Positions 14,027 through 62,474 of a stretch of DNA of 64,000 nt are shown piece after piece. Origin of the DNA: Patescibacteria group bacterium (GTDB taxonomy: Bacteria; Patescibacteriota; Saccharimonadia; Saccharimonadales; JAZKJC01); assembly GCA_040384565.1 (NCBI GenBank), contig JAZKJC010000008.1:18049-82048 (forward strand). Direction: 5' to 3'. The position numbers and the translations under genes were made by a program. The notes under the pieces are model-generated. The model was not told the origin of the DNA and did not search any database. It was given only the letters and a program-made list of their open reading frames with translations. Within the stretch, counting starts at the first letter, position 1. Every line of letters begins with the position of its first letter.

Positions 14027-14072
14027 AATCTGGCTTATGGTTGCGTTAAAGACGTCTGCATAATATTCTAGG

Positions 14073-14414: not shown

Positions 14415-14415
14415 G

Positions 14416-19165: not shown

Positions 19166-19240
19166 CTCAATGGTGGAGCAAGAAGCTGTTAACTTCGAGG
19201 TTGTCGGTTCGAGTCCGACCCCGGGAGCCAGACCAAGCAC
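19166..19240 (+). tRNA. tRNA-Asn (anticodon GUU) with encoded CCA
   Basis: Cloverleaf folded by hand: acceptor TCCCGGG/CCCGGGA, D-arm GCTC-AATGGTG-GAGC, anticodon loop CTGTTAA, T-arm GTCGG-TTCGAGT-CCGAC, discriminator G then CCA. Confidence 0.85.
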
Positions 19241-42125: not shown

Positions 42126-44111
42126 ATGCTTAAACTCAGAGACTTACTACCTTTTGTACTTTTAGTGGTTCTATTGCTTCCTGCCATTGCAAACTCACAG
42201 TCGGTCTACATAAAAGACGAAACCGCAGGTGTTCTAAACCAACCCACTTTACCATCAAAGACAGTGGTTTTAACTTTTGATGACGGACCATCAGAATACA
42301 CTCCTGAAGTATTGGAAATACTCAGAGAAAAACAAGTGAAAGCCACCTTTTTTGTAGTTGGCAGTCAGGCTGTACAGCATAAGTTACTTAAGCAGATTTA
42401 TGATGAAGGCCATGAAATCGGCAACCACACCTATACCCATCTTGATTTATCCAAGGCTCCCAATTGGCGTATGAAACTGGAGCTAAACATAACCCGCATT
42501 ATCATAACGTCCCAGACAAACCACTCTACTAGGTTATTCCGTCCGCCTTTGCTTGGGTCTGACGCGCTAACACCGGAAGCACGTTCAATAGTTAATAAAG
42601 CTGCGGACCTTGGCTATATAACGGTTGGTGAAACAATTGATTCAGAGGACTGGCGCAAACCTGGTACGCAAAAACTCATCGCCAATGCCACAGACGAAAG
42701 CGGTGGAATTATTCTGTTGCATGACGGTGGTGGTGACCGCAGCCAAACAGTCAAAACATTACCGGAAATCATAGATTACTACCAAAAACATGACTACAAA
42801 TTTATGACCATAAACCAAGCCCTTGGCATTTCCAGGCAGGATGTCATGCCTGCGCTATCAACAACTGATCGTCTGCTTGCCATACTTGCTAAAGTAGTTA
42901 TAACAGCTGTTTCCTGGATAGGTACCGGGCTGCGGTGGTTTATCATTATACTAATTGTTGCCAGTTTTGGACGATTTTTCATAGTTACCGTTGCCGCTTT
43001 GATTCAGTCTCGACGCAAGTTCAAGCTGGATACAACCGAGAATCTTCCATGCAGTATCTTAATACCGGCCTACAACGAGTCAGCGGTTATACAAAGCTGC
43101 CTTAAGTCCGTGCTTGCTAGCAACTACACTCGTTTTGAAGTTCTGGTAATTGATGATGGCTCTAAAGATAACACTTATGAGTTGGCAAATGAAGTCCAAG
43201 ATCCCCGTCTTCGTGTATTACGTAAAGAAAATGGCGGCAAAGCCTCGGCACTCAATTATGGCATTGCCGAGGCGAGGGCACCTTTTCTGATCGCCATTGA
43301 TGCTGATACTGTTTTTAGGACTCGTACAATAGCTAAACTGATGCGTCACTTTGCCAACCCTAGAGTGGGAGCGGTCTCCGGTAATACTAAAATTGTGAAT
43401 CGGCACAAACTGATCACCAAACTGCAGTCGTTAGAATACATTGTGGGGTTTAACCTAGACCGGCGCATGGGGGATCTGTTTGATTGTATTACGGTGGTTC
43501 CGGGGGCGGTTGGCGCATTCAGAAAATCGGCCATCAATAGAATAGGTGGTTTTACGTTTGATACGCTGGCAGAGGACACTGACCTTACTCTTTCAATCAA
43601 AGAAACTGGCTACAAAATAGTTTACGATGCTGAGGCGGTAGCATTGACTGAAGCACCAGCGACTATCCGGGACTTGCTGAAGCAACGCTTCCGCTGGACG
43701 TTCGGCACCATGCAAGCTATCTGGAAACATAAGCGATCGTTCCTTAATCCAAGACGTGGCAGCCTCGGCATGATCGGCTTGCCGTATCTCTTATTCTTCC
43801 AGATAATCTTTCCGCTGTTTAGCCCCTTGTTTGACCTAGCGCTTATAATCGGGCTTATAAACCATCATTATAAGCTAATGGTGGTCAGCTTTGTAGTCTA
43901 TACGGTAGTCGACATTCTTACGGCTGCGATAGCACTGCGGCTAGATAGTGAAAAACTTCGTAATCTCTGGATCCTTATTCCACAAAGGATTCTTTACAGA
44001 CAGCTTATGTACTACGTGATCGTACGCTCATTTATAAACGTACTGAGAGGCAGATTGGTACACTGGGGCAAACTGGAGCGCAAAGGCACTCACTTAGCTA
44101 AGAGCTTGTAG
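42126..44111 (+). CDS. bifunctional polysaccharide deacetylase (NodB/CE4) and processive family-2 glycosyltransferase
   Basis: N-terminal TFDDGP and HTYTH (NodB motifs). C-terminal GT2 with the DxD region and QRFRW (Q-x-x-R-W). Confidence 0.85.
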   Translation: MLKLRDLLPFVLLVVLLLPAIANSQSVYIKDETAGVLNQPTLPSKTVVLTFDDGPSEYTPEVLEILREKQVKATFFVVGSQAVQHKLLKQIYDEGHEIGNHTYTHLDLSKAPNWRMKLELNITRIIITSQTNHSTRLFRPPLLGSDALTPEARSIVNKAADLGYITVGETIDSEDWRKPGTQKLIANATDESGGIILLHDGGGDRSQTVKTLPEIIDYYQKHDYKFMTINQALGISRQDVMPALSTTDRLLAILAKVVITAVSWIGTGLRWFIIILIVASFGRFFIVTVAALIQSRRKFKLDTTENLPCSILIPAYNESAVIQSCLKSVLASNYTRFEVLVIDDGSKDNTYELANEVQDPRLRVLRKENGGKASALNYGIAEARAPFLIAIDADTVFRTRTIAKLMRHFANPRVGAVSGNTKIVNRHKLITKLQSLEYIVGFNLDRRMGDLFDCITVVPGAVGAFRKSAINRIGGFTFDTLAEDTDLTLSIKETGYKIVYDAEAVALTEAPATIRDLLKQRFRWTFGTMQAIWKHKRSFLNPRRGSLGMIGLPYLLFFQIIFPLFSPLFDLALIIGLINHHYKLMVVSFVVYTVVDILTAAIALRLDSEKLRNLWILIPQRILYRQLMYYVIVRSFINVLRGRLVHWGKLERKGTHLAKSL

Positions 44112-46695: not shown

Positions 46696-47526
46696 TTGAG
46701 AAATACGTCCACTGCGAAGAAGCTAAGTTTTACTATATATCCTTTTGATGATATTCTATATTTAATGGCCCCTGTAGACGCTCAGTCCGCGCGACTTAAT
46801 AATTTCGGCGCTCTTGTGCAGAGCGCTTGGACTGATTTTGCCGAAAGTGAGCATAGATTCAGGCTATGTATTTCCACGATTGCCGCCTTAGGGACAATTG
46901 CGGTTAATGTTCCAAAGCTTCCTCTTGTGGGAGTACCTAACTTAGCCCTTGAGGCATTAGAGCATACGAATAGCCCCACCGTAACGGGTTTAATAACAGG
47001 AGCAATATTTGGAGCATGGACTTTAGGCGCGGCTAGCCTTGTTGACGCAGCTGGCAACCATTTCCCCAAGGTCAAACAAGTGGTAAGAGAGCGATTTTCG
47101 CGTGCTACAGATTTTTTGTCTAATACATTGCCGGGCTTCACATTCGAGGATGAGGACAGGCATGAACATAGAAGTCGAGCCAAACAACTGGGACATGGTG
47201 CCCTGACTCATATTAGACGTGGCCTGACAGTCTTAGGTATCGGCGCCGGGTTTTATGTAGGAACCGCTCAGATAGAGGAAAGGCCACGTCAAGAAATTCG
47301 TCGTTTACGGCGCTTAGCCGCTGGTGACGCGACCCTCATGATTGGTGGTTTATCTTGCGCGACTACCGCTATAGTCACAAAAATAACTGAGAAAGATCCG
47401 GCACTGGCTGAACGGATTCAAGATGGAGCAACTGATTCAAAAATACTGGTAGGTCTGGCGGTTAGCCTGCTGGTAAGTCAAGGGCTTAATAAGAGACGAC
47501 ACAAACGCCAACTCGGCCAGGTATAA
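46696..47526 (+). CDS. hypothetical membrane protein
   Basis: 276 aa with several TM segments. Confidence 0.45.
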   Translation: MRNTSTAKKLSFTIYPFDDILYLMAPVDAQSARLNNFGALVQSAWTDFAESEHRFRLCISTIAALGTIAVNVPKLPLVGVPNLALEALEHTNSPTVTGLITGAIFGAWTLGAASLVDAAGNHFPKVKQVVRERFSRATDFLSNTLPGFTFEDEDRHEHRSRAKQLGHGALTHIRRGLTVLGIGAGFYVGTAQIEERPRQEIRRLRRLAAGDATLMIGGLSCATTAIVTKITEKDPALAERIQDGATDSKILVGLAVSLLVSQGLNKRRHKRQLGQV

Positions 47527-47632
47527 AATCTTATAGCTATAAGTTTCCAAGCAATATTTCTGTGCGTAGAGAAGCTTAATTGCTAAATACTTGACAAAAT
47601 CTAACCAGTAAATTTAAAAGCCGGTATACTGT

Positions 47633-48610
47633 TTGATAATAATGCTTGAAGCACCGTTTGCAATTCTTGTTATTCTCATTTTAGTAACGGTTAGTGGCTT
47701 TGCGACCAACTACAAGCGGCGCCATAGAAAGTTCGAAACTGCCGGGACTTCTATTCTTATGACTTATTATACAGAGGGAATGGAGCTTATACCCCTGAAA
47801 AAGGGCTTAATAGGCGATATGCACTTCACGGCAATTGCTGCTTTTTCTAAACTAATCAACGGTGCAGACAGCAGGCCGGCGCTTTTATTCCGCGTTGAAC
47901 TGCCTTTTCACAGCCGAGTTCACTTACTTGGTATTCCCAAGCAGTCCGGCGCAATACAGCTGGAACCAGCTGGAGGTAAAAGTGTGATGGAACTGGTTGA
48001 ATTAGAAGGTGATTACCCGAAATACTTTTCGCTGTTTGCGGAAAAGGAAATGCAAGCTCAGAGCAGGTATGTGCTTGATCCAAAGGCAATGGTATTTACT
48101 ATTGATTTCTGCCAGTCGCATAACTGGGAAATCTTGGGTGGGGATCTCTATTTTGTACAAGCTACTGCTAATGTTCCGGGTGATAAGACGAACATGATCG
48201 ATGACGCAGTACAGTTTGTAAAGGAAATCGAGCCTGCGATAGCCATACCTCTAACGGAAACTGAAATCCGTCTGCGTACGCCATACAACGAAGAGCGAAG
48301 AACCGATTTGGCGTGTCCACTGTGTAATAAAACTTTGCTAAACGAGCAAAGCTTTCTGGCGTGTCCGGATAACCATGGATTTCTACTGAAAGCGACTGTT
48401 CTACTACAAATAAACCGTGGAACCGTGGTTTTACCAAATGTTTCTGCGCATGAAAACGTAAAACGCAACATACCTGCTGCCTGTCCAGCGTGTGGAGAGA
48501 TTATGAAGCATGTACCTTACAACGGCGGCAAAACCATTATAGATAGCTGCAATAACTGCCCATACCGCTGGCTCGACGCAGGCGAGTTAGTAGCAAATAT
48601 GACCAACTAA
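47633..48610 (+). CDS. hypothetical protein with C-terminal zinc-ribbon motifs
   Basis: CPLCN...C and CPACGE...CNNCP cysteine pairs. N-terminal TM. Confidence 0.5.
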   Translation: MIIMLEAPFAILVILILVTVSGFATNYKRRHRKFETAGTSILMTYYTEGMELIPLKKGLIGDMHFTAIAAFSKLINGADSRPALLFRVELPFHSRVHLLGIPKQSGAIQLEPAGGKSVMELVELEGDYPKYFSLFAEKEMQAQSRYVLDPKAMVFTIDFCQSHNWEILGGDLYFVQATANVPGDKTNMIDDAVQFVKEIEPAIAIPLTETEIRLRTPYNEERRTDLACPLCNKTLLNEQSFLACPDNHGFLLKATVLLQINRGTVVLPNVSAHENVKRNIPAACPACGEIMKHVPYNGGKTIIDSCNNCPYRWLDAGELVANMTN

Positions 48611-48693
48611 AAAAACAGTAAGTACCCAGAAAGATCCGTGAGGGCGATATACCGTAACTTTGATGTCCTAAACGACATTAAAGCCCGACAAGC

Positions 48694-49554
48694 TTAGGTC
48701 TCAATTTTATTCTGTTTGATCCAAAGCCTTACAGCCTGCACATGCGAGCAATCGCCTCGCTTAGCAAAAGGCTTTTGCCCATTAGACAACGGGCAATCAC
48801 AACCCCAGTCATGATTAGATATAAAAATAAGCTCGTGGTCACTTGTGTTTCCTTTTACTAAAAAGCTAATGTTACTCCTAGCCTGTACTTTGTTATTTAG
48901 AAAATATTTAAGAGCTTGGTGAAACAGTTTAATAAATGAAATATACGATCCTGAAGCCAGATACTGACGAGCGTATTTTAAGGTATGTGACTGAAGATTT
49001 TGGGGTAAGTCATTAAACTGCCGTCTATTTTGCAAGCTGCTTTGTATGCACTCGCTTACTGCTTTTCTCTTAGCTACACTTATGTTAAATAACAGTATAT
49101 CTGGACGTGCTAAAATCTGTTGAGTCAGTTCATTATGATATACGATCGTAATTGTGCCGATGAAATCATTAGATGCATCTAAATACTTTTTGAGCAAAGA
49201 CTTAAACTTTTCTGAATAGAGCTGCATTTGACCAATTTCATCGATATAGAGCAATTCATTTGCATGGAACGTTGAAAGACTTTTTACGAATCCATCAAGT
49301 ACATTCGGCTGGACATAGTAATGCCCGACTTTCTTGCTCGACAGCCTATCTATTTGAGCCAGGACCGCGGTGTTTCCACTCGTATCCTCAACCATGAAAC
49401 CCGTACGACGACCATTTTGAGACACTTCTTTACTGACAAAGCCCTTTTTTGCGTCTATGTCTTTAAGCACGCTGATAAGCATAGTACTCTTGCCACTTTT
49501 TGGCTGACCCGTAATAAGTATTTTCATTCTCTCAATGTTATCATGCCGAATCAT
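48694..49554 (-). CDS. THEP1-like P-loop NTPase fused to a SWIM-type zinc finger
   Basis: Walker A ILITGQPKSGKST and Walker B LLYIDEIG. The C-terminus CDCP...C.H is the SWIM CxCxnCxH pattern. Confidence 0.6.
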   Translation of the reverse strand: MIRHDNIERMKILITGQPKSGKSTMLISVLKDIDAKKGFVSKEVSQNGRRTGFMVEDTSGNTAVLAQIDRLSSKKVGHYYVQPNVLDGFVKSLSTFHANELLYIDEIGQMQLYSEKFKSLLKKYLDASNDFIGTITIVYHNELTQQILARPDILLFNISVAKRKAVSECIQSSLQNRRQFNDLPQNLQSHTLKYARQYLASGSYISFIKLFHQALKYFLNNKVQARSNISFLVKGNTSDHELIFISNHDWGCDCPLSNGQKPFAKRGDCSHVQAVRLWIKQNKIET

Positions 49555-49582
49555 ATCCGTTAGGACGTGATAGTATAGCTAC

Positions 49583-50209
49583 ATGATCAACATAACGGCG
49601 AAATCCCCAAATGAAGCTTGGGTAGAAACGTTCAAAGCTCTTTTACAAAAGAGCAGTGAAACAGGGAACAAAAAGTACTTTCGTGATGAGACAACAGTTA
49701 TTGAGATCACTCACCCGTCAGTTGCCCCAGCGGATTCACGCTTCCCTATGGCACAAGCCGATCTTGATGTTATCAACCATTACATTCATACGGGAGAGAA
49801 TGAGGAGAATGTCGTTCATGAGTGGACCAAGCTCTACTATCACCGCGCCTTTGATAAGCCAAAATCCCAAATAGAATTTTTGATAGATAAATTGAATGCC
49901 GATCAACCCGTTGGCGAGGCACAGATTTCGATGTGGAATAAAAATATAGATCAGGGGCAGAAAGTATCCCCTTGCACTCAAATTATATGGGCTCGTATTA
50001 AACATAACCGACTAGAGCTACACGTACACGCTAATTCTTCTGATGCCTATAACAAGCTGCTTATGAACATGTTGGAGTTCATATCCCTACAGCACTATAT
50101 TGCCCAAAAAGTAAATGTGCCGGTGGGCAAATTCTACCATTTCATCGACTCTTGCCATTTGCACCATAAAGATATTACAGTTATTACAGAGCTCCATGCT
50201 AAGCTATAA
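49583..50209 (+). CDS. short thymidylate-synthase-fold (ThyA / dCMP-hydroxymethylase-like) protein
   Basis: 208 aa. SPCTQIIWARIKHNRLELHVHANSSDAYNKLLMNMLEFISLQHYIAQKVNVPVGKFYHFIDSCHLHHKD aligns with the TS block PCH..QFYV..LSCQLYQRS.D.FLG.PFNIASYALL..M.A.....G.F....GD.H.Y.NH. The catalytic Pro-Cys is present. Confidence 0.5.
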   Translation: MINITAKSPNEAWVETFKALLQKSSETGNKKYFRDETTVIEITHPSVAPADSRFPMAQADLDVINHYIHTGENEENVVHEWTKLYYHRAFDKPKSQIEFLIDKLNADQPVGEAQISMWNKNIDQGQKVSPCTQIIWARIKHNRLELHVHANSSDAYNKLLMNMLEFISLQHYIAQKVNVPVGKFYHFIDSCHLHHKDITVITELHAKL

Positions 50210-50258
50210 CAGAAGAATGCGTTTGATTATAAATTAATATTATGGTATACCGTTTACT

Positions 50259-51470
50259 ATGAAAAGTGAGTTAGCCCCGGCTGTTATTGCTGGATTTGAC
50301 TTTGTACAAGGTGCCGACGCCCCAGATATTAATGACACGTACCGTCATAATTTGAGCCGCCTGGTACTTCTTCAGGATAAAGGCGTCACTCATTTTTATG
50401 GTTGTTATCTTGACCTTGAACCGGATAATAAGGTCTGGATGAGCCCGGTTGAGGTAGATGACGGCGAAAACTATTCATATTTTCAAGTTTTATACGTCAA
50501 TACCACTCCGCAGGAAGCTTTGGACAGAAAAGATTTACCCGTATCTGGGCTGGAAGTAAACGAAACCAGCTTTAAACTGAACTCTAGTACTGACCCCGAG
50601 TTTCGGCAGTTGATGGCTCAATTTGATAGTGGGGAAAAACATATTCTTGTAAGATACTGCAATAATGGCATGGCATACTACCCCCGCAGCATTACACCCA
50701 GACAAGAAACTGAAGTCCGCAATAGACACCTGGAAAAATTAATCGTTGCAACAGGATTACGCGAACCAGAATTAACTATCTCTTTGGTCATGCCATCACA
50801 AAATGGCAATTCTATAATCACTCCACAGCTTTTTGACACCGTTCACGCCAAAAAATTTCCTTTTAACGGCGGTGAAGTATACTCATACGGCATATTACTA
50901 GAGGATGACCCTTGGCAATATTATGAAGTCTTTACGCCACGCAGAATTGAGAAAATGACAGGTAGCGATTTGCTAGTACGCATTGACTCGGGGTGTGATA
51001 TCGGGCAGATATATGATGACCATGGCTGTGATTGCCGCGAGCAGTTTCATGGTGCCTTAGCGGAAATGCAGCAATTAGGCCGGGGTGTAGTTATACATAT
51101 TCCAGCTCAGGACGGCAGAGGTTATGGTACGGCGACAAAAATGGAAACAGAAGGATTAAAACGGGGCATTGAAGTCGCTACTAACCATAGTAATGCTAAA
51201 CCTGTAGATACGATAACTGCAGCGCAAATGGTGCTAGGGACTGAATTTGATATAAGGACCTATAGGGGCGCGGGTAGGTTGCTCACGATGCTTGGTCTTA
51301 GGTCTATAATTCTTCAAACTGACAATCGCTTGAAGACAGCCGGAGTAATTAGTGAAGGAATAGATGTGAGAAGAACCCCAACCAACACCAGTGGAGCTAA
51401 TGGTTCAATGCAACATGTAGAAGCCAAACACCTTCACTCAAAAATATACTATGAGGCAAGCAGGGCTTAA
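50259..51470 (+). CDS. fusion protein: unknown N-terminal domain (~200 aa) plus a GTP cyclohydrolase II (RibA)-like C-terminal domain
   Basis: LVRIDSGCDIGQIYDDHGCDCREQ gives the zinc-binding C...CxC. GVVIHIPAQDGRGYG fits QEGRGIGL. A ...LLTML...IILQTDN tail follows, as in GCHII. Confidence 0.6.
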   Translation: MKSELAPAVIAGFDFVQGADAPDINDTYRHNLSRLVLLQDKGVTHFYGCYLDLEPDNKVWMSPVEVDDGENYSYFQVLYVNTTPQEALDRKDLPVSGLEVNETSFKLNSSTDPEFRQLMAQFDSGEKHILVRYCNNGMAYYPRSITPRQETEVRNRHLEKLIVATGLREPELTISLVMPSQNGNSIITPQLFDTVHAKKFPFNGGEVYSYGILLEDDPWQYYEVFTPRRIEKMTGSDLLVRIDSGCDIGQIYDDHGCDCREQFHGALAEMQQLGRGVVIHIPAQDGRGYGTATKMETEGLKRGIEVATNHSNAKPVDTITAAQMVLGTEFDIRTYRGAGRLLTMLGLRSIILQTDNRLKTAGVISEGIDVRRTPTNTSGANGSMQHVEAKHLHSKIYYEASRA

Positions 51471-51471
51471 C

Positions 51472-52362
51472 ATGGAAAGTATAGAACCGGCAGAGCCTTA
51501 CTATCCACCCGCAGCGCCTGGAATTGAAAAAATTAGAAATCGCTGGATAGAGATTGATTCGATGGCCGGGCTAGGAATAGATCCAGACCTTGAAAGAATT
51601 CCGGCGGAAATCTGGGAAGAAGTCGGCGGAGCTGAAAATGTTGCCGACGGGATCACACTATTTGCAAAAGGTATCATAGACGCGACGGCTGATCTTGTGG
51701 TTGATATGAAGCCTAACCCCGTCTTCTTTAAGGGCAGCGCAGGTCGTCTTGCTCTTGCCAATACTTTTGCTTATATGAAAGAAAAGCATCCCGGTGTCCT
51801 GCGAGTGTGTGACGGTAAGTTTGCCGAAGTCGGGCACTCAGCAGAAAAAATTGCCGATGAAATTTTTGGCGATTTAGACGCCGATGCCGTATTGCTTAAT
51901 CCCTACTTAGGTTTTGACGCGATTGAGCCTTTTGCTAAGTGGAAAGATAAGTTGGTAATTTTGTGTGTCAATACTTCTAATCCTTCGGCAGCGCAGATTC
52001 AAAACTTACCGCTGACCGATGGTAACCCGCTATGGAAACACATACTGCTGGAAAGCATGCAATCATGGAATTATAACGGGAACATCATACCAGTTATGAG
52101 TGCTACACATCCAGACAATTTAATTGGAATAAGGGATATCGTCGGCGATACGCCAATACTACTGGCTGGAGTAGGCAGCCAAGGTGGTAGTGTAGATGAG
52201 ACGGTGCCTGGCTGTCTGGATTCGCAAGGTTACGGACTCATGATTGGCGCTTCTCGCGCAGTGCTATACCCAGATGTTCAGGCGGGCGAAACAGCCATCC
52301 ATGCATCTCGGCGCGCGGCCCTGACACTACGCGACAACATCAATTTAGCAAAGGCTGCTTGA
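51472..52362 (+). CDS. OMP-decarboxylase-family (ribulose-phosphate-binding barrel) protein with a non-canonical catalytic motif
   Basis: VDMKPNPVFF occupies the DxKxxD position with the second Asp replaced. ILLAGVGSQGGS matches the PGVGAQGG phosphate-binding loop. The start is taken at the second Met, giving a 1-nt gap after the upstream stop. Confidence 0.5.
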   Translation: MESIEPAEPYYPPAAPGIEKIRNRWIEIDSMAGLGIDPDLERIPAEIWEEVGGAENVADGITLFAKGIIDATADLVVDMKPNPVFFKGSAGRLALANTFAYMKEKHPGVLRVCDGKFAEVGHSAEKIADEIFGDLDADAVLLNPYLGFDAIEPFAKWKDKLVILCVNTSNPSAAQIQNLPLTDGNPLWKHILLESMQSWNYNGNIIPVMSATHPDNLIGIRDIVGDTPILLAGVGSQGGSVDETVPGCLDSQGYGLMIGASRAVLYPDVQAGETAIHASRRAALTLRDNINLAKAA

Positions 52363-53003
52363 TGAACAAAATCATATTCGCCCCAGAACAGCGCAGCGCA
52401 GAGTTAGACCTCGCGCATGAACGTAAACTTCTAAAGGATCGGCTATTCATTTTACTACTTGGGCCATCTGGAGTTGGTAAATCCACCATTATAAAAGAAT
52501 TAAATAATCTAACTGGTAACACCAGATTTTCTTATGTGAAACCTTTTATGACAAGACCGCTTCGCCCTGATGAAACAGATAAAATTAGCATTAGTTCTGA
52601 AGGATTTGATCAGATGAAAGATCGAAGTGAGTTCGTGGTTGTAAACGATAGGTACCATGTACGCTATGGTACGCCTCTGTCCGGCATCCTTAGTCCGCTC
52701 AGCCAGCAGATAACACCAATTCTAGATTACCCACTGGAAACAGTGCCAGCACTGCAAAGACCAGAGTACGACACCCTTAATTTTTATGTCTATCCGGCTT
52801 CAATTGAGGAGTGGAAACAAAGAATGGAGAGTAGCGGGAGAAATATGAATGGTCGATTGGAGGCAGGCTTACATGAGCTAGGCAGACTTGCTGCACTAGG
52901 TTTTGTCCACCCTGATATTGATTTAAGCGTTGTTAATGCAGATGGCGCCAGTAGCGCTGCAGCACACGATATTCTAGAATGCATAGACACGCTGGTCACG
53001 TAG
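52359..53003 (+). CDS. guanylate-kinase-like P-loop nucleotide kinase (divergent)
   Basis: LLGPSGVGKSTIIKEL P-loop, then TRPLRPDE...F...YGT blocks that resemble Gmk. The canonical GMP-binding Tyr and Glu positions are not conserved. Confidence 0.55.
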   Translation: MMNKIIFAPEQRSAELDLAHERKLLKDRLFILLLGPSGVGKSTIIKELNNLTGNTRFSYVKPFMTRPLRPDETDKISISSEGFDQMKDRSEFVVVNDRYHVRYGTPLSGILSPLSQQITPILDYPLETVPALQRPEYDTLNFYVYPASIEEWKQRMESSGRNMNGRLEAGLHELGRLAALGFVHPDIDLSVVNADGASSAAAHDILECIDTLVT

Positions 53004-53004
53004 T

Positions 53005-53481
53005 TCAGTTTGCTTCAGCAGTTGGCACTTCTGGCTGTGCTCGCGCCTGAGCTTGCTCGACGCTTCCGTAGGCATGCATTGATCCCGGGACAAGCCTATA
53101 TGCTGGCCTATCCTCTTGTGGGTAGACCATTGGATTACCTATTACGTTAGCACAAGAGGCACAGGCTAGGGAACCGGCTCTTTTTATAGTCTTGGACGTG
53201 AGATCCACCAGTTCTAACACAAGCGCTGGAGGCCAAACTATTCGGTCGTTATAACACCTTTTTAACTGACCTGGACCATCTTTCTGATACACCATTACCG
53301 GCTCTTCACAACTAGCACAAGCTATATACAAAAACCTCGAAGCGCCCCGAGCACGAGCATATCTATCTTTTCGGGGCTTAAACGTATCATTTGGAAATTC
53401 CATTTGGCTATTATTATACAATATACAAGGTATTAATCCCAGTGTTTCATTCTTACAGCATCCCTCGCCAACCCTGTCCAC
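53005..53481 (-). CDS. hypothetical Cys-rich protein (two CASC-type pairs)
   Basis: 158 aa with ACASCEEP and ACASCANV. Confidence 0.4.
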   Translation of the reverse strand: MDRVGEGCCKNETLGLIPCILYNNSQMEFPNDTFKPRKDRYARARGASRFLYIACASCEEPVMVYQKDGPGQLKRCYNDRIVWPPALVLELVDLTSKTIKRAGSLACASCANVIGNPMVYPQEDRPAYRLVPGSMHAYGSVEQAQARAQPEVPTAEAN

Positions 53482-53569
53482 GCTGTTCTACGCACTACGG
53501 CCACCTTGCGGTCTACTGGCTCATTGATCATTCCCAGACGATATAAAACATTACACGTTCTTGTTTTAC

Positions 53570-55564
53570 CTATTTGCGGGCTAGTTTTTGTTTGATAATT
53601 TTCTTGATTTTAGTGCGCAAGGGCGGGCTTACTATTGGCAGGCTAAAGTAAAATTTTGTACCTGTGCCATGAGATGATTCAAACCAGAGTTTGCCGTGCA
53701 TTTGCTCAATGTATTCTTTGGTTATGTACATACCTAGCCCTGTACCTGTGACGCTTTTGCGGTCTTCATGTTCCACGCGGAAGAACTTTTCAAACATATG
53801 GGCTTTTTGGTCTTCTGGGATGCCTAAGCCATTATCTTCTATGCATGTGACTAACAGATTGTCTTGGACTTGGTGGGAAACTATTACGTGACCACCGGGA
53901 CGGTTGTATTTGATGGCGTTTGAAACAAAATTATTAATTATTATTCTGAGTCTTTGCTCATCCGCAAGCACGTCTGCTTCGTGTACGTGCTTGTACTCCA
54001 GGGTTACATTGGTAATTTTAGCCACGACGGCCATGGTGCTTATGACGTCTTCTACGACAGGCTTAATTGGCACTGTCGTTAGCGCGAACTCTGACCGGCC
54101 ACTTTCTAGACGGGCGACGTTGAGCATATCATTTACCAAATCGCGCAGGCGAGCCGATCCGTAATATGCTTGGTCAATCAGAAACTTTGCCTTATCATCC
54201 AGTTTTTTGTCGTACATTTCATTAAACATTGATAAATGACCGATAATTGCGGTCAGTGGTGCCCGCAGCTCATGAGTGGCCACAGATATAAATTCTTTAT
54301 TTTTCTCATCTACGGATTTTTCGACATCAAAAATACGTTGGGCCATAGCATTCATGGTTTCCGCCAGACGCACAAATTCGCCGTCAGCATGGTCTAGCGC
54401 AATTTTATAATCCAGCCTGCCCGAACCAAATACCATAGCCCCACTAACAAGGCTAACAATATTGCGCAGGGTCCGCTGTATAAAGAATGTGCCAACCCAA
54501 ACAAAGCCCACCATAAATAACCCAATCACTACCACAGCCGCAAGCTGCGCATCCCTAAGAGTCGCCAGTACGGCTGCCGTAGGCGAAGCAATTGCCACCG
54601 ACCAGTTGGACGAGCCAGCCGGTGCCCCCACAACCGTATGGTCTACATTGTCCAGAGGTATATTTATATACGGTTCATGATGCAGTTCATTAATGCTGGT
54701 TTTGAACCCGTCAGCATCTTTAAGAATAGGGTAGGCCGGGCTGCCGGTGCTATCCAGTAATAACGCTAATGTCCTTGTCCGGTCTATCGGGGCACTTTCC
54801 CAAACCTGCCTAATGAAATTTTCGTTTTGCAAATCATAGGCAGCCAAAACACTCCCGCCAGGAATTTGAAAAGCAAAAACGGCCAATTGGTAACCCTCGG
54901 CAGTGGCTAGCTTACCTCTTATTGAGCCTACTAACGCACTCTCCGCATCAGGCTGAAAAATATTTGTAGAAGCCTTGAATATGCCGGAGTAGGCCGAACT
55001 GACAGGTTGTTTTTTGTCGTTAATTATCAGTAACGCCAAAGTTTCTGGGAAAAATTGCTTAAACGCGGAAATACGTTCATTTATACGCTGGTTTTGGTCT
55101 TGAATCATTTCCTCGCCAAGCAATACGTATTCGTTTTCCAAAGACGCTAGGTTACCTGTGTTACTGCCCGCAAAACCACCGCGGAATGGCTCGCAGACAC
55201 CATTTGGAGCATCCTTGAAAGTAAACTTTTTCTGCATGTGGGCCCGGCAAGCATCACGGTTGTCATCTAATTGTTTTCTGTCGGAGTTATATTCGCTTTT
55301 GATTACAAATAGCTCCGTACCGCTTTGCTTGAGAATAGTTTCACGCAGGGCAAACTCACGCTCCAGCGTAGCGGCAGTTGTTGTGGCGGAACGCTTAAGG
55401 CCATCTATAGCTTGCCGGTGCAAAATATTTCCAAGCTGCCAAATGGTTGCCGCGCTCAACAACAATAGAGCCACAAAAGGCGGCGCCAACACTCGCATGA
55501 CAAACCGACGGTGCAGGTTACCGTTATTTTTGCTCTCAGACATAAGCATTATTGTACATGGCAA
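53570..55564 (-). CDS. sensor histidine kinase (periplasmic sensor, HAMP, HisKA, HATPase_c)
   Basis: H-box ATHELRAPLTAI, N-box NAIKYN, and G1/G2 boxes DNGLGI and GTGLGM. Confidence 0.85.
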   Translation of the reverse strand: MPCTIMLMSESKNNGNLHRRFVMRVLAPPFVALLLLSAATIWQLGNILHRQAIDGLKRSATTTAATLEREFALRETILKQSGTELFVIKSEYNSDRKQLDDNRDACRAHMQKKFTFKDAPNGVCEPFRGGFAGSNTGNLASLENEYVLLGEEMIQDQNQRINERISAFKQFFPETLALLIINDKKQPVSSAYSGIFKASTNIFQPDAESALVGSIRGKLATAEGYQLAVFAFQIPGGSVLAAYDLQNENFIRQVWESAPIDRTRTLALLLDSTGSPAYPILKDADGFKTSINELHHEPYINIPLDNVDHTVVGAPAGSSNWSVAIASPTAAVLATLRDAQLAAVVVIGLFMVGFVWVGTFFIQRTLRNIVSLVSGAMVFGSGRLDYKIALDHADGEFVRLAETMNAMAQRIFDVEKSVDEKNKEFISVATHELRAPLTAIIGHLSMFNEMYDKKLDDKAKFLIDQAYYGSARLRDLVNDMLNVARLESGRSEFALTTVPIKPVVEDVISTMAVVAKITNVTLEYKHVHEADVLADEQRLRIIINNFVSNAIKYNRPGGHVIVSHQVQDNLLVTCIEDNGLGIPEDQKAHMFEKFFRVEHEDRKSVTGTGLGMYITKEYIEQMHGKLWFESSHGTGTKFYFSLPIVSPPLRTKIKKIIKQKLARK

Positions 55565-56981: not shown

Positions 56982-59900
56982 ATGGGAGTTCTTGCTATAG
57001 GCCGTAAACGGTTATTAATCGTTGCGGTTGTTTTGTTATGTTTATTCAGCATACCTAGTGTTTTTGGTGAGCATGGCGGGCCGCCAAAAGCGGACTTAGA
57101 CCAAGCACACAATGGTTCAGCTGCCTCTCCAGACTCGCCGGTTGACTGGGTAAACGGCAATGCAAATGAAAATAATTCTCACTACATTGAGGGGTATTCC
57201 ATTCCTTATCGTCTGATATTTTCAAACTTATCAGTTGGGGAACATACCGTAATTATAGAGTGGGACATCAAGCATAGCGGCGCGCATGCCATTGACTACA
57301 TTACGTCTTATGATCGCCTGGAGCCGCATGCTCCGTTTGGCCATGGTGCCGAGGGCATTAACCCAATTGAAGGAACTACCGCTACTGGAACACCTGATAC
57401 TTTTCCCATTCCGGTTCCAAGTAGTACTGGGAGTCCGGTTCCTGATCAGCCAACTACTGATTTTAATACTTTACAAGATAGTGAGCGCCAGATGACGCTT
57501 TGGAACGGCACAATTACCGACATGGAATATGTTGCAGAAGGCGATCTTAACGAAGAAAATTCATCAACCAGGATGTCAATTGCTTTCACTGTTACCGAAC
57601 CTCATGATGACGCTGTCTTAGCCTGGGGCGGTCATATTGGCACCGCGGAAGTTTGGGGAGATGGCAACTCGGCCGGTGGCATTAGTGGCTCGCCATACCA
57701 TACTCGCTTGATCTCCCTTGATGGGGTAGGCGGCAATCAAGACCGCTCGCTATCTGCTGCGGCTGTTATACCAGCACCACAAGGTTCAATTACACTTGAT
57801 AAGGTTACCGTTCCTTCGGCTGACGCCCAGAGTTTCGGATTTACAACTAGTGGTTTACCTGCTCCAACCAGTCCATCACTTACTGACGCGGCCACACCAA
57901 TTGTTTGGTCTGCACTTGAGGATGGCACGTACACCATTACAGAAAATGTTCCTGGTGATTGGGACTTAACAAGCAAGAACTGTACCGGAGCAACGCAGGG
58001 TACGACCATTACTCCTACAGCTTCTGGCCTTAATATAAGCCTAGCGAATGGCGATCAGTTGGTTTGTACTTTTACTAATACTAAACGCGCGCATATTATT
58101 GTCGATAAAGTTACGCAGCCCAGTGGTGACCAGCAAAGCTTTGGATTTACCACTACTGGTGCAGGTTACACTGGCTTCTCACTGACCGACTCGGCCGCTT
58201 CAAATAATCAGTCTGTTGTGCCAGGAAATTACACGGTCGCAGAAACAGCCGTTGATGGTTGGACTCAAGTCAGCGCAACATGTGATGGTCAGCAATCCCC
58301 AAATTCGATTACCGTAACGGCCGGCCAAACGGTTACTTGCACGTTTACAAATAGCAAACTTCCGAGATTGACGCTTGTAAAAACTGTTACGAATGATAAC
58401 GGTGGTACCTCGCTACCGGGCGCTTGGACGCTGACAGCAACAGGACCTACACCTTTGTCTGGCGTCACTGGTACTGCGGCGGTTACAAATGCTGCGGTTA
58501 GCGCAGGCGAGTACAACTTGGGCGAGACTGGTGAGCCAGCCGGCTACACAGCCGGTACATATTCATGTGCTAACAACAGTGGCAACCCAGTGGTAAGCAA
58601 TACTATTACACTAGCTCCTGGCGACAATGCCACTTGTACTATAAATAATAACGACAATGCCCCAGGTTTAACTCTTGTAAAAGTTGTGACTAATGACAAC
58701 GGTGGTGGTGCTACCGAGAATCAATGGACGTTAACCGCTACCGGTCCAACTGGTTTTAGCGGTGCGGGACCCTCAGTATCAAATGGTGCTTCATTTGATA
58801 CAGGCAGCTACGACTTATCTGAATCTGGACCTAGTAGCTACACGGCCAGCAGTTGGGTATGTGTCGGCGGAACGCAAGATGATAGTGACACCGTCAGAGT
58901 AAGTTTGGGACAATCTGCTATTTGTACAATTACAAACAACGATAATGCTCCATCCTTAACTCTCGTAAAAGTGGTGGTGAACGATAACGGCGGTACCGCG
59001 CTAGAAAATGCCTGGACGTTAACCGCTACCGGGCCAGCTGGTTTTAGTGGCGCTGGACCCTCAGTACCCAACGGCACTTCATTTGATGCCGGTTCGTATG
59101 ATCTAAGCGAAACTGGGCCAGCTGGTTATACAGCTAGTGATTGGGTGTGTGTTGGCGGTACACAAAATGACGGAGATACCGTAACAGTAGGCCTTGGCCA
59201 ATCAGCCACTTGTACTATTACAAACAATGACAATGTTCCAACATTGATTCTCAATAAAGTCGTCGTCAATGATAATGGCGGCAGCGCAACCGAGAGCCAG
59301 TGGACTCTGAATGCGCTAGCCGGTCCAACACCATTCTCGGGCCCGGGAGCAGTAGGTGACACAGATGTTACAAGCAATGCAGCCTTTGATGCTGGTACCT
59401 ATTCATTGACAGAAACAGGCGGGCCAGCCGGTTATACAGCGAGTGCTTGGACCTGCGTTGGCGGAAATCAAAATGGAGCCAACATTACTGTCGGCTTGGG
59501 ACAAACCGCCACCTGTACCATTACAAATAATGACCAACAAGCTTCTATAACTGTCGTTAAGGTAGTTACAAACGACAACGGCGGTTCAGCTTTGCCAAAT
59601 GACTTCAATCTTACCCTAGAAAGTAATCCTGTCACGTCCGGCATAACAGTACCCGTTAACCCCGGAACATACACAGCAGGTGAGACAAATCTGCCTGGCT
59701 ATACATTTGAGGGCTTCAGTGGTGATTGTGACCAAAATGGCGACACAACCGTTGCGTTGGGCGAGACCAAAACTTGCACGCTGACCAACAATGACCGACA
59801 GGCGTTCCTGATAGTGAACAAAACCGTCATCAATGACAATGGCGGTACCGCTGGACCAAACGACTTCTTGTTGACTGTTGATAATACTTCCGTCTTAGAT

Positions 59901-62474
59901 GAAGTTGCCGTCCCTGTTAACCCAGGTGTACATACAGCCGGGGAGACGCTACTGACTGGCTACACAGCTGGTCCGTGGGGAGGCGATTGTAATGTAAATG
60001 CAAGTGTGACTGTAGCGCTTGGTGAAACCAAGACATGTACCATTACGAATAATGACACCACAGGCACGCTTACGATTGTGAAAAATACCGTAGGTGGTGA
60101 CGGGCAATTTAACTTTACTGTTACCGGCCCGACTGCTTCAACACCGAGTATCACAACAGCTGCCGGTACTGGTTCAAACGGCCCAACCAATGTAAATGCC
60201 GGCACGTACTCAGTAGCAGAAACCATTCCTGATGGCTGGACGCTGAATTCTGGCACATGTAATGACGGTACTTCCGTGTTTGATGTGGCTACTGTCGCTA
60301 ACATCCAAGTTTCGCTAGGCGAAAACGTCATTTGTACATTCACTAATACCAAAAGGCCGAAACTCACCGTTGTGAAAGTAACGGTTCCTGCCGATGATGA
60401 TGGTAACTTCAATCTGCTCATTAACGGTACCGAACACGCCACAGATGTCGGCGATGGCGGTACAACCGGAGCGCAGTTTGCAGTCATCGGCGCAAATACG
60501 TTTGCAGAAGCAGCCGGAACAAACACTAACTTAGCTGACTATACAAGTGTCGTATCTGGTGATGGCTGCGGTGGTACAGCTACAGCTGGCACCATTACAC
60601 TGGCGGCTGGCGATGACAAAACCTGTACTATCACGAACACCCGAAAAGGTCGCATCATTGTAAATAAAGTAACCGATCCTGCTGGCGATCCACAGAGCTT
60701 CGACTTTACGGCCGGTGGTACTGGCTATAACAACTTTTCGTTAACTGACGCTGCAGCTCCAAACAACCAACAGGTCGTACCAGGCTTGTACACTGTGACC
60801 GAGACAGTACCGGCTGGTTGGGACCAAACTTCTGCAACTTGTGACAGCGATGAAGCACCCGGTAGCATAGACGTTGGACCTGGCGAAACAGTTACCTGCA
60901 CATTTACGAACCAGAAAGATGCCAATATCGTGGTCATCAAACAGACTATTCCGGCTGGTGACCTAACCCTATTTACCTTTGTGGCTAACTACGACAACGA
61001 TGGCTTCAGCCTAAGTGACGGGCAGTCTAATGATTCAGGCGACCTCAATCCAGGCGCCTACTCGGTCAGCGAAACTGTACCGGTTGGTTGGGTTCTAGAT
61101 AGTGCTACTTGCAGCAATCAACAAAACCCAGGCTCACTTACTCTGGCAGCTGGGCAAACTATCACCTGTACCTTTACGAATGGTAGGCTTCCAAAGCTCA
61201 CACTTGTAAAAAATGTTACGAATAATAATGGCGGTACGCTTGGCGTGAGTGATTTCCCGCTGTTCGTAGACGCACAATCAGTGACCAGTGGTCAAGCAAA
61301 TACCTTTGCACCAGGCAACTACACAGCTTCTGAAACAAACCATCCGGACTACACCGCCAGTGTCTGGGGCGGAGCGTGTGCAGCAACTGGAACAGTAACA
61401 TTAGCATTCGGTGATGATAAGACTTGTACTATCACCAACAACGACACCGCGCCTCAACTTCATTTACGCAAGGTTATAGTCAATGACAATGGTGGCGCAG
61501 CAACTGTTGCTGACTTCACACTGACCGCAAATGGTACTGGCTCTAACGACCTATCTGGTACAAGCCCTGTAGATTCCGGCCCTGGCTTAATTGCAGATAC
61601 ATTTGCCTTAAGTGAAACCGGTCCAGCCGGCTACACGGCATCAGCCTGGGTCTGCGTTGGCGGGACACAAAATGGCGCGAATATTACCGTTGGCATTAAC
61701 CAATCAGCTACTTGTACTATTACTAACAATGACATTGCGCCGCGGCTGATCGTCATCAAAACTGTCATCAACGACAACGGTGGCACACGAGTAGCTGGCG
61801 ACTTCACTATGCTTGTTACTGCTACCGAACCGTCTGATGATAACTTCCCAGGCAACGCGGCCGGCACAACCATTACGTTGGACGTTGGAGCCTACAGTGT
61901 TGACGAGCAAGACGCGCTTGGTTACATAAAAACGTTGGGTACAGACTGCGTGGGTACAATCGCCATCGGTGAAACTAAAACCTGTACCATCACCAACAAT
62001 GACCCCGTACCGCCAATTACCCGTACCATTGGCTTCTGGCAAACCCATCTGGCCCTTGCCACTCAGGTTTTTGAAGCCAATCAACAAAACAATTACTGGT
62101 TCATTTGTGGACCCCGCACTATTGAAACCATTGGCGAGCTAGAAGGTGGCCTCTGGGCAAATGTCGCCAAAACGACCACAAATGCCAAGCGCAGCAAGCT
62201 AAATCAAGCCCGCATGCAAATGATGCAGCAACTACTTGGCGCCATGCTCAACAAAGCAGCCTTTGAAACTGATGATGGTGACTTGATAGCCGCAGCCAAA
62301 ACAGCCTATTGCACGGAAGACACCGCCCAAATACTATCACTCGCCGGCCAACTTGACACCTTCAATAACAGTGGTGACGACACGCCACTACCCACAGGAG
62401 TAAATACCGCCTCAGCCACACCAAAGACCGCCAAAGACGTCGCCACAGAAGAAGCCTGGGACACATTACCTTAG
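56982..62474 (+). CDS. giant secreted surface protein (1830 aa) with at least 14 tandem ~95-105-aa Ig-like repeat domains and a unique ~170-aa C-terminal domain
   Basis: N-terminal signal and strong RBS (aaggaggg). Each repeat carries L(T/I)LVK.V.NDNGGTA...WTLTA.GP...YxLSETGPAGYTAS.WVCVGGTQ...LGQSATCTITNND, resembling Cna-B/DUF11/prealbumin-like adhesin repeats. Confidence 0.8.
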   Translation: MGVLAIGRKRLLIVAVVLLCLFSIPSVFGEHGGPPKADLDQAHNGSAASPDSPVDWVNGNANENNSHYIEGYSIPYRLIFSNLSVGEHTVIIEWDIKHSGAHAIDYITSYDRLEPHAPFGHGAEGINPIEGTTATGTPDTFPIPVPSSTGSPVPDQPTTDFNTLQDSERQMTLWNGTITDMEYVAEGDLNEENSSTRMSIAFTVTEPHDDAVLAWGGHIGTAEVWGDGNSAGGISGSPYHTRLISLDGVGGNQDRSLSAAAVIPAPQGSITLDKVTVPSADAQSFGFTTSGLPAPTSPSLTDAATPIVWSALEDGTYTITENVPGDWDLTSKNCTGATQGTTITPTASGLNISLANGDQLVCTFTNTKRAHIIVDKVTQPSGDQQSFGFTTTGAGYTGFSLTDSAASNNQSVVPGNYTVAETAVDGWTQVSATCDGQQSPNSITVTAGQTVTCTFTNSKLPRLTLVKTVTNDNGGTSLPGAWTLTATGPTPLSGVTGTAAVTNAAVSAGEYNLGETGEPAGYTAGTYSCANNSGNPVVSNTITLAPGDNATCTINNNDNAPGLTLVKVVTNDNGGGATENQWTLTATGPTGFSGAGPSVSNGASFDTGSYDLSESGPSSYTASSWVCVGGTQDDSDTVRVSLGQSAICTITNNDNAPSLTLVKVVVNDNGGTALENAWTLTATGPAGFSGAGPSVPNGTSFDAGSYDLSETGPAGYTASDWVCVGGTQNDGDTVTVGLGQSATCTITNNDNVPTLILNKVVVNDNGGSATESQWTLNALAGPTPFSGPGAVGDTDVTSNAAFDAGTYSLTETGGPAGYTASAWTCVGGNQNGANITVGLGQTATCTITNNDQQASITVVKVVTNDNGGSALPNDFNLTLESNPVTSGITVPVNPGTYTAGETNLPGYTFEGFSGDCDQNGDTTVALGETKTCTLTNNDRQAFLIVNKTVINDNGGTAGPNDFLLTVDNTSVLDEVAVPVNPGVHTAGETLLTGYTAGPWGGDCNVNASVTVALGETKTCTITNNDTTGTLTIVKNTVGGDGQFNFTVTGPTASTPSITTAAGTGSNGPTNVNAGTYSVAETIPDGWTLNSGTCNDGTSVFDVATVANIQVSLGENVICTFTNTKRPKLTVVKVTVPADDDGNFNLLINGTEHATDVGDGGTTGAQFAVIGANTFAEAAGTNTNLADYTSVVSGDGCGGTATAGTITLAAGDDKTCTITNTRKGRIIVNKVTDPAGDPQSFDFTAGGTGYNNFSLTDAAAPNNQQVVPGLYTVTETVPAGWDQTSATCDSDEAPGSIDVGPGETVTCTFTNQKDANIVVIKQTIPAGDLTLFTFVANYDNDGFSLSDGQSNDSGDLNPGAYSVSETVPVGWVLDSATCSNQQNPGSLTLAAGQTITCTFTNGRLPKLTLVKNVTNNNGGTLGVSDFPLFVDAQSVTSGQANTFAPGNYTASETNHPDYTASVWGGACAATGTVTLAFGDDKTCTITNNDTAPQLHLRKVIVNDNGGAATVADFTLTANGTGSNDLSGTSPVDSGPGLIADTFALSETGPAGYTASAWVCVGGTQNGANITVGINQSATCTITNNDIAPRLIVIKTVINDNGGTRVAGDFTMLVTATEPSDDNFPGNAAGTTITLDVGAYSVDEQDALGYIKTLGTDCVGTIAIGETKTCTITNNDPVPPITRTIGFWQTHLALATQVFEANQQNNYWFICGPRTIETIGELEGGLWANVAKTTTNAKRSKLNQARMQMMQQLLGAMLNKAAFETDDGDLIAAAKTAYCTEDTAQILSLAGQLDTFNNSGDDTPLPTGVNTASATPKTAKDVATEEAWDTLP

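Follow-up and report, generated by a model that had tools for sequence, protein, structure and literature searches.

A cluster of six genes was analysed in a 64,000-nucleotide stretch of DNA (hereafter the window) from a Patescibacteria group bacterium of the order Saccharimonadales (assembly GCA_040384565.1, contig JAZKJC010000008.1). The six genes constitute one accessory nucleotide-metabolism module of reduced-genome symbionts, namely Patescibacteria and some Chlamydiae. Its core encodes a GTP cyclohydrolase II (GCHII)-like fusion protein (GCHIIf), an orotidine 5'-monophosphate decarboxylase (OMPDC)-like protein, a guanylate kinase (Gmk)-like protein and a small zinc protein with a tentatively assigned beta-tent-like fold; a thymidylate synthase (ThyA)-like protein and an NTPase-SWIM protein accompany it in some lineages. 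All parts come from known superfamilies, and each is a distinct subfamily that is unannotated or mis-annotated. The literature searched contained no description of a GCHII/OMPDC/kinase/beta-tent module. Among known systems, the URC pathway, which includes a uridine triphosphate (UTP) cyclohydrolase, comes closest; the module differs from it in residue pattern and in linked genes. Our preferred reading, held tentatively and at somewhat below an even chance, is that of an accessory pyrimidine-nucleotide module feeding a UTP-cyclohydrolase-like base hydrolase; we infer UTP as the substrate, as well as the order of the steps and the purpose. The genes of the cluster are:

48694..49554, minus strand: NTPase_1-SWIM gene (Pfam NTPase_1, PF03266, 2.7e-29).
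49583..50209, plus strand: ThyA-like gene, 208 aa (Pfam PF00303 Thymidylat_synt, 2.1e-11).
50259..51470, plus strand: GCHIIf gene, encoding an N-terminal domain of ~190 aa and a GCHII-fold domain (GTP_cyclohydro2, 4.1e-18).
51472..52362, plus strand: OMPDC-like gene, 296 aa (OMPdecase; TIGR02127 pyrF_sub2, 148.5 bits).
52362..53003, plus strand: Gmk-like gene, 213 aa from ATG (PF00625 Guanylate_kin, 5.6e-12).
53005..53403, minus strand: gene for the beta-tent-like zinc protein, 132 aa (two CxxC pairs and the motif YQKDGxGxLxRxYxDRI).

Evidence for a single module comes from conserved linkage. Twenty-four GCHII-like homologues were aligned, 24 loci were collected from GTDB species genomes together with assemblies holding individual homologues, and the window proteins and iterated profiles served as queries against the six-frame open reading frames (ORFs) of the loci. 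The core of GCHII-like, OMPDC-like and Gmk-like genes plus the beta-tent gene is linked in about 30 loci from Saccharimonadales, other Patescibacteria and Chlamydiae. GCHIIf is the constant and universal member of the module, the zinc protein is the most consistently linked partner, and 23 of the 27 non-redundant loci have an OMPDC-like gene no further than 10 kb from GCHIIf, with gene order and coupling unchanged. In 13 Saccharimonadales-type loci the ThyA-like gene precedes GCHIIf; in the distant locus L033 it is convergent, and most module variants are without it. The NTPase-SWIM gene occupies the same position as in the window in five further loci and adjoins an OMPDC gene in L024; most loci have the core without it. 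Both are lineage-specific add-ons outside the core. Of the membership proposed in an initial annotation, which had been made from the sequence alone, the GCHII-like, OMPDC-like and kinase genes were thus retained as core, whereas the ThyA-like and NTPase-SWIM genes were reassigned as add-ons and the beta-tent gene had been missed.

Four architectures were distinguished. In the first, present in Saccharimonadales, Gottesmanbacteria, Shapirobacteria and other members of the Candidate Phyla Radiation (CPR), GCHIIf is followed by the OMPDC-like and Gmk-like genes and then by the convergent zinc protein gene. The second (L034, L035 and partly L023) consists, in this order, of GCHIIf, a HAD-like phosphatase with a DxDxT motif and no Pfam match, a PfkB kinase and a convergent OMPDC gene of another clade. 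In the third (L039/L040 and L041), the beta-tent gene comes first, followed by a short single-domain GCHII (210-227 aa), an OMPDC-like gene and a short Gmk-like kinase. The fourth, found in Chlamydiae (L007) and in L029, begins with a ROK-like::NTPase_1 fusion, to which an ADK::zinc-domain fusion and then GCHIIf succeed. Architectures 1 and 3 invariably show GCHII first, then OMPDC, then the kinase. Module members are also fused to one another. OMPDC and the Gmk-like kinase form one protein of 521 aa in Gottesmanbacteria, and the small zinc protein, used as query in an exhaustive profile search, yielded 502 cluster representatives, the best 150 of which were checked for fusions. Among these 150, seven are Gmk-like::zinc-domain proteins, and one each is an NTPase_1-SWIM::zinc-domain (P0239), a zinc-domain::GCHII and a GCHIIf N-domain::zinc-domain protein. 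Such fusions of module members to the zinc domain are strong evidence for a shared function. The genes are therefore not independent copies of orthodox housekeeping genes, as had been suspected from the window, since they are linked, co-inherited and partly fused across loci. In one complete genome (L003; CP064992.1), which has de novo purine and pyrimidine genes near the module, the ThyA-like gene is split into ORFs of 65 and 91 aa (7479-7948) and the Gmk-like gene into ORFs of 141 and 107 aa (10064-10809); this could reflect gene decay or long-read frameshift errors.

Within the window, the five ORFs between 48694 and 53003 lie where the initial annotation had placed them, and Pfam and NCBIfam profile scans bore out its family assignments for the NTPase, ThyA-like, GCHII-like, OMPDC-like and Gmk-like proteins. 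Its four-gene operon with a divergent NTPase gene is real, and the four co-directional genes are translationally coupled, but the convergent fifth gene of the cluster (53005-53403) had been overlooked. A spacer of 28 bp separates the divergent NTPase and ThyA-like starts. The GCHIIf stop codon TAA occupies 51468-51470, and the OMPDC-like start was assigned to the ATG at 51472 because relatives and the public gene call use it; of the two options considered before, the 1-nt gap with the second Met as start is therefore the better supported one. The ATGA overlap reported at 52359 had to be revised, since the OMPDC/kinase junction reads TGATG, a 1-nt overlap with the ATG at 52362, or TTGA if the TTG at 52359 is used as start. 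The Gmk-like stop is 1 nt away from the stop of the convergent beta-tent ORF. The GC content across the module region is unremarkable. An exact copy of the GCHII-like protein is on record from a 96-kb contig of a 'Patescibacteria group bacterium' metagenome assembly, and the nearest relatives are Saccharimonadales. Promoter and terminator scans gave counts no better than those for shuffled sequence. Searches for riboswitches or other RNA elements returned none in window positions 47000-54500 at E <=1 and none at gathering score in eight loci, where only tRNAs were detected.

The GCHII-like C-terminal half of GCHIIf, described initially as carrying a zinc C...CxC motif and QDGRGYG, was confirmed. 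The GTP_cyclohydro2 match is confined to residues 237-371. The zinc motif CX2GX7CXC as defined for this enzyme class (PMC10366380) is exact (C246-x2-G249-x7-C257-x-C259) and invariant in the 24 aligned family members, as are the Q-D-G-R-G residues of the QDGRGYG motif and the equivalent of RibA Arg128 (D331-x-R333). The TxNxxK motif is also kept, and all four elements are shared with RibA, where Arg128 and the GRG loop act in pyrophosphate release (PMC10366380). GCHIIf is thus predicted to keep the machinery for nucleoside triphosphate (NTP) binding, pyrophosphate release and generation of a zinc-activated water. Other parts of the active site differ from RibA. In the alignment to 2bz0, 4i14 and 4rl4, RibA residues H51, E53, D58 and Y105 correspond to D, G, Q and E298 in GCHIIf, and the short single-domain GCHII forms have Leu at the Tyr105 position, whereas the UTP cyclohydrolase UrcA retains all four. 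GCHIIf scores 58.7 bits against the RibA equivalog model TIGR00505 (cut-off 205.85), and all RibA equivalog cut-offs are missed widely. It further differs from RibA in its extra 190-aa N-domain and in its context, which is pyrimidine-related with no riboflavin genes nearby.

URC1/UrcA (PDB 7eev, 7ej3) resembles GCHIIf in being a GCHII-fold zinc enzyme of ~400 aa in total with an extra N-terminal region. An insertion of ~11 residues after the GRGxG...K helix is common to GCHIIf and 7eev and absent from RibA. In a Foldseek search with the AlphaFold2 model of GCHIIf (predicted local distance difference test score, pLDDT, 88), RibA and UTP cyclohydrolase scored about equally over ~190 columns. Residues 25-190 had no Foldseek match and the N-domain had no Pfam relative; homology to the N-terminal region of UrcA was not demonstrable by Foldseek, which did not uphold a UrcA-like two-domain architecture.

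For the OMPDC-like protein, the initial annotation had noted a degenerate catalytic motif, DMKPNP in place of DxKxxD. This does not hold. In the HMMER alignment to the Leishmania enzyme 3qw3, 'DMKPNP' pairs with 'AYKPNAAFFE', which contains the first catalytic lysine, and the true DxKxxD stretch, LDAKRGDIADTA in Leishmania, pairs with CDGKFAEVGHSA in the window protein. The window protein has D-G-K-F-A-E at this motif, most relatives D-G-K-F-A-D. Also conserved in the window and its relatives are the Asp of GxDP, the first Lys (DMKPNPVFF), the Ser of TSNPS, the Gln of GxGxQGG (GVGSQGG in the window) and the Arg of SR. With 148.5 bits, the protein exceeds the TIGR02127 pyrF_sub2 cut-off of 110.6, and like type-2 PyrF it has all catalytic and ligand-binding motifs. 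Its catalytic set is thus essentially intact, which points to retained orotidine 5'-monophosphate (OMP) chemistry. It differs from type-2 PyrF in that DAKRGDIG is changed to DGKF(A/G)(D/E)V and GST to GHT, and in that the module gene always adjoins the GCHII-like gene and is kinase-fused in Gottesmanbacteria.

A neighbour-joining tree resolved three OMPDC clades, formed by the module proteins, by canonical type-2 PyrF and by the architecture-2 proteins. The canonical clade groups with Leishmania and includes the genes beside pyrE/pyrD in L003 and L023, two genomes in which canonical PyrF coexists with the module OMPDC. L041, a Patescibacteria metagenome-assembled genome, has three OMPDC-family genes within 8 kb (6124-7014, 7563-8402 and 13920-14588), one of the module clade, one of a 'DxKKDEN' clade and one type-1-like. 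In genomes with other OMPDC genes (L003, L023 and L041), the module OMPDC is a paralogue and not the orthologous housekeeping pyrF, in line with the initial suggestion of a paralogue. Sole copies that are unlinked in relatives would have spoken for divergent housekeeping enzymes; for pyrF, further copies and conserved linkage were found instead. Canonical gmk, thyA, pyrF and ribA were found neither in the window nor in the short public contigs of the same sample.

The Gmk-like kinase, described before as lacking the canonical GMP-binding residues, indeed lacks them. Sixteen of 246 matches were aligned, and in all 16 the positions of E. coli Gmk S37, Y53 and E72 are taken by P, S/V/I and V/I, respectively. 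The fold, the P-loop, the TR..R..E phosphate-acceptor motif with both acceptor-phosphate arginines (equivalents of R41/R44) and the RYGTP motif are kept, as in guanylate kinase and the ribose-1,5-bisphosphokinase PhnN. In contrast to these enzymes, the guanine-binding Ser/Tyr/Glu set is replaced family-wide, fusions to OMPDC or beta-tent domains occur, and the scores fall below both equivalog cut-offs (59.7 bits for TIGR03263, cut-off 160.45; 50 bits for PhnN, cut-off 156). This residue pattern argues for a kinase with a re-specified acceptor site that is probably no longer guanine-specific.

The small zinc protein is encoded in an ORF at 53005-53481, and its conserved start MEFP at 53403 gives a length of 132 aa. 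It carries two CxxC pairs and the invariant motif YQKDGxGxLxRxYxDRI, has no Pfam family of its own and gives weak matches to RIG-I_C-RD and to 'beta-tent' Pfam families. These matches and a structure model with pLDDT 82 tentatively suggest a beta-tent-like fold, as in MsrB, Yippee/Mis18, GFA/CENP-V, the cereblon CULT domain and the RIG-I C-terminal domain. Several beta-tent domains bind small ligands, uridine or triphosphate ends. The zinc protein is set apart from known beta-tent domains by its own invariant motif, and a role as partner of nucleotide enzymes would be new; it may act together with the kinase and the hydrolase as a subunit that binds ligands or nucleotides. Many beta-tent family members from other lineages show a signal-peptide-like hydrophobic N-terminus followed by a low-complexity charged linker of ~80 aa, and Chlamydiae-type GCHIIf proteins also start with a signal-like segment; these features were noted in proteins P0172, P0181, P0195, P0204, P0214, P0255 and P0263, and also in P0089, P0094 and P0154. 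Such segments suggest export or membrane anchoring of beta-tent and GCHIIf proteins in some lineages.

Of the two accessory proteins, the ThyA-like protein can be aligned over its full length to TIGR03283, the methanogen-type model of 201 positions, at a score below the cut-off (65 bits, cut-off 174.55), which agrees with the earlier remark that its size is close to that of archaeal ThyA. The predicted PC(H/T) active-site dipeptide is present as PC-T-Q and includes the Cys nucleophile; the equivalents of S167, D169, N177 and H207 and the ring-binding motifs S-S-D, LLMN and CHL were identified by alignment to the B. subtilis and E. coli enzymes. Proteins of the window clade have lost the arginines that bind the dUMP phosphate (R126/R127 to E/A and R166 to N), and Y209 is changed to H, while K-R and R166 are still present in the L033 homologue. 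Thymidylate synthase cannot function without the R166 equivalent. The NTPase has the Walker motifs GQPKSGKST and DEIGQMQ and scores 115 bits against the equivalog model NF010248 (cut-off 156). It had been described as a THEP1-like NTPase fused to a SWIM zinc finger. The NTPase_1 assignment stands, and a C-terminal SWIM-type CxC...CxH motif ('W-C-[DE]-C...C-S-H-x-Q-A') is conserved in seven of seven relatives, the C-terminal domain being conserved in L010, L013, L016, L018, L024 and P0239; Pfam, however, gives no SWIM match at E <=0.1.

The module is sparsely distributed. Two near-invariant GCHIIf peptides were matched in only 24 of 185,579 GTDB species genomes. Pyrimidine genes are neighbours in several loci, with pyrD and pyrE in L003, a pyrF-E-D-C-like set in L023 and a PyrC-like amidohydrolase and PyrD in L035. 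Genes of phosphoribosyl pyrophosphate (PRPP) metabolism and kinase genes are represented by a Tmk::phosphoribosyltransferase (PRTase) fusion in L033, a PRPP synthetase in L039 and a Udk-like kinase in L035. No riboflavin or folate genes were present in any neighbourhood examined, and none of RibD, RibH, RibE, Fol and Mpt was encoded there. In three unrelated lineages a transposase or integrase gene directly flanks the module:

L003, 4978-6021: rve integrase.
L005, 2839-3873: Transposase_mut.
L006, 32-1066: Transposase_mut.
L007, 3-272: DDE_3.

In 10 of the 24 loci, tRNA genes of six isoacceptor types are located 6-670 bp from the module boundary:

L004, 7655-7728: tRNA.
L009, 4082-4156: tRNA.
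L010, 5038-5112: tRNA.
L012, 13770-13844: tRNA.
L014, 8653-8745: tRNA.
L016, 13545-13619: tRNA.
L025, 5344-5418: tRNA.
L030, 3964-4037: tRNA.
L039, 4203-4276: tRNA.
L041, 8486-8575: tRNA.

Ten of the 12 tRNAs in the loci lie less than 750 bp from the module edge, compared to 1.4 expected (binomial 2.5e-8, a value that ignores shared ancestry). This proximity may reflect island-like insertion at tRNA genes; in the window itself the nearest tRNA gene (Asn, 19156-19230) is 30 kb from the module. Sparse distribution, transposases and edge tRNAs fit a horizontally mobile accessory module. A virus or plasmid origin was considered and rejected, since PHROGs gave generic thymidylate synthase and guanylate kinase matches only and IMG/VR contained no relative. 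Matches to GCHIIf in plasmid and phage collections were ordinary RibA matches to its C-terminal half.

In the pathway that we prefer, the OMPDC paralogue would convert OMP to uridine monophosphate (UMP) or a close analogue; UMP would be the simplest product, given that the residues for uracil recognition and catalysis are conserved and that the protein scores above the PyrF equivalog cut-off. The dedicated Gmk-like kinase would then form the diphosphate, with an ADK-type, PfkB-type or ROK-like (or Udk-like) kinase as feeder in other lineages, and a general nucleoside diphosphate kinase would provide the triphosphate. In a fourth step, the GCHII-like enzyme would hydrolyse the pyrimidine ring and release pyrophosphate, like the URC1/UrcA UTP cyclohydrolase of yeast and bacteria. 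It probably halts after a single hydrolytic step, because the tyrosine of RibA and UrcA is Glu or Leu in the GCHIIf family. In architecture 2, the resulting ribotide would be dephosphorylated by the HAD-type phosphatase. The purpose could be pyrimidine breakdown and ribose harvest, or the making of a ring-opened product. Architecture 2, with its HAD-like phosphatase and PfkB kinase, is compatible with the URC scheme and its intermediate ribosylurea, and the URC context resembles the module in its nucleoside/nucleotide kinases, its PRTase and its dephosphorylated riboside intermediate (PMC7530994).

Several observations weigh against this proposal. The catalytic-domain profile relates GCHIIf more closely to RibA (E 1.8e-20) than to UTP cyclohydrolase, to which the sequence relation is weak (E 3e-3), and Foldseek does not separate the two. 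All four residues H51, E53, D58 and Y105 of UrcA are replaced in the GCHIIf family, and from its residue pattern GCHIIf may catalyse a chemistry different from that of both known enzymes. No annotated neighbourhood contained URC4, urea amidolyase or a malonate-semialdehyde enzyme, and URC8 is likewise unlinked to the module; conversely, OMPDC, the Gmk-like kinase and the beta-tent protein are not parts of URC. The Chlamydiae loci and L029 have no OMPDC gene nearby. Furthermore, a catabolic funnel leaves a second OMPDC clade beside canonical PyrF unexplained, as it does a special kinase if PyrH exists, and the order GCHII, OMPDC, kinase fits the opposite order of reactions at least as well.

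That opposite order is the basis of a reading which we consider doubtful, the synthesis of a non-canonical nucleotide in gene order. The GCHII-like enzyme would open the base of an NTP with pyrophosphate release to give a carboxylated ribotide 5'-monophosphate, OMPDC would decarboxylate it, and the kinase would form the diphosphate or, in architecture 2, the HAD phosphatase would free the nucleoside instead; cofactors, signals, nucleic-acid building blocks and antimetabolites are conceivable as products. Such a scheme accounts better than the catabolic one for the gene order, invariant in architectures 1 and 3, and for a dedicated OMPDC clade and an altered kinase kept beside canonical PyrF. 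It also suits a GCHII active site that is unlike RibA and UrcA. GCHII-type products are 5'-monophosphates (PMC10366380), which suit OMPDC barrels. A phosphatase as alternative last step resembles the logic of nucleoside antibiotics. However, the OMPDC keeps all orotate/uracil-recognising residues and scores as a PyrF equivalog, which speaks for OMP itself as its substrate, and no substrate that yields an OMP-like carboxylate on hydrolysis could be named with confidence. In addition, chemistry without precedent would be required, and transporter, resistance or polymerase genes are not consistently linked. In its full form, with limited credence, this reading would have a new GCHII-fold enzyme and its beta-tent subunit remodel the base of an NTP, with OMPDC and the nucleoside monophosphate kinase finishing a non-canonical nucleotide, an undescribed metabolite. 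Unlikely, in our estimate, is a set of ordinary pyrimidine salvage genes that merely cluster, with OMPDC as PyrF, the Gmk-like protein as UMP/CMP/dTMP kinase, the ThyA-like protein as thymidylate synthase and the GCHII-like protein as a deaminating pyrophosphatase ((d)CTP to (d)UMP, pyrophosphate and NH3) like the bifunctional dCTP deaminase-dUTPase. All folds are indeed nucleotide-salvage folds, OMPDC passes the PyrF cut-off, the L033 ThyA-like protein with canonical arginines is encoded next to the Tmk::PRTase fusion, and no second gmk or thyA was found in the 64-kb window or in the 10-kb locus flanks; by chemical analogy, zinc-activated attack at C4 of a pyrimidine NTP would deaminate CTP. 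But only a tiny fraction of Patescibacteria species have the module, which therefore cannot be the universal gmk/thyA, canonical PyrF coexists with it in L003, L023 and L041, the window-clade ThyA-like proteins are without R126, R127 and R166, and repeated fusions to an uncharacterised zinc domain would be unexpected for plain housekeeping enzymes.

A GTP-derived, riboflavin- or pterin-like cofactor route appears very unlikely. GCHIIf would open GTP, the OMPDC barrel would process the ribosylamine phosphate, a kinase or phosphatase would trim the product, and this product might serve as pterin source for the short, methanogen-like ThyA. In favour of the route, RibA is the closest match of GCHIIf by sequence, and a homologue appears under the name ribA in one source. 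The short ThyA is similar to the methanogen form, and RibA reportedly substitutes in folate synthesis in Chlamydia. The lack of RibD, RibH, RibE, Fol and Mpt genes in all neighbourhoods examined argues against such a route, as do the replacement of RibA Tyr105, His51, Glu53 and Asp58 and the RibA score far below cut-off. Moreover, OMPDC keeps decarboxylase and not isomerase residues, the kinase is without guanine recognition, and the ThyA-like gene is missing from most module variants. We regard as least probable, indeed as highly improbable, a system for anti-phage defence or conflict that would act by depleting or poisoning nucleotide pools, with the NTPase-SWIM protein as sensor and the enzymes as effectors. 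Such a role, raised by the initial annotation, would agree with the patchy distribution, with the transposases and tRNA genes at the borders and with a divergently transcribed P-loop NTPase that carries a zinc finger. It lost ground since PADLOC returned nothing beyond generic P-loop noise (E >=2e-4) and no family member was found in the IMG/VR, phage and plasmid collections. In most loci the core lacks the NTPase-SWIM gene, and the intact metabolic enzymes are translationally coupled, fused pairwise in the manner of a pathway and kept in ~1-Mb genomes beside pyrimidine biosynthesis genes.

CPR/Patescibacteria and environmental Chlamydiae rely on scavenged nucleotides, the processing of which is poorly understood, and the module provides four to six small soluble proteins that are amenable to experiment and for which hypotheses can be clearly framed. 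It covers an uncharacterised GCHII subfamily of at least ~100 members, a third and a fourth clade of OMP decarboxylases, a kinase family of at least 246 members that is annotated 'guanylate kinase' and very unlikely to be one, and a zinc-domain family of ~500 cluster representatives without Pfam entry or assigned function. Solving the module would fix a widespread mis-annotation of ribA, gmk and pyrF in CPR genomes, and could bring to light either a new nucleotide or a URC-type route for pyrimidines in bacteria.

Several neighbouring genes were identified in the window. A protein of 325 aa whose C-terminus carries zinc ribbons of the TFIIB and RlmA types is encoded next to the NTPase gene (47633-48610); it was placed outside the module because its homologues are found only in contigs of the same organism (L001 and L002). 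Further upstream lies a fusion of a polysaccharide deacetylase and a family-2 glycosyltransferase (42126-44111, 661 aa), and a HAMP-HisKA-HATPase sensor kinase (53570-55564, 664 aa) is encoded directly downstream of the beta-tent gene; neither is conserved beside the module elsewhere. The region 56982-62474 encodes an 1830-aa surface protein with repeated SpaA/prealbumin-like domains ('VVNDNGG...TCTITNND' repeats).

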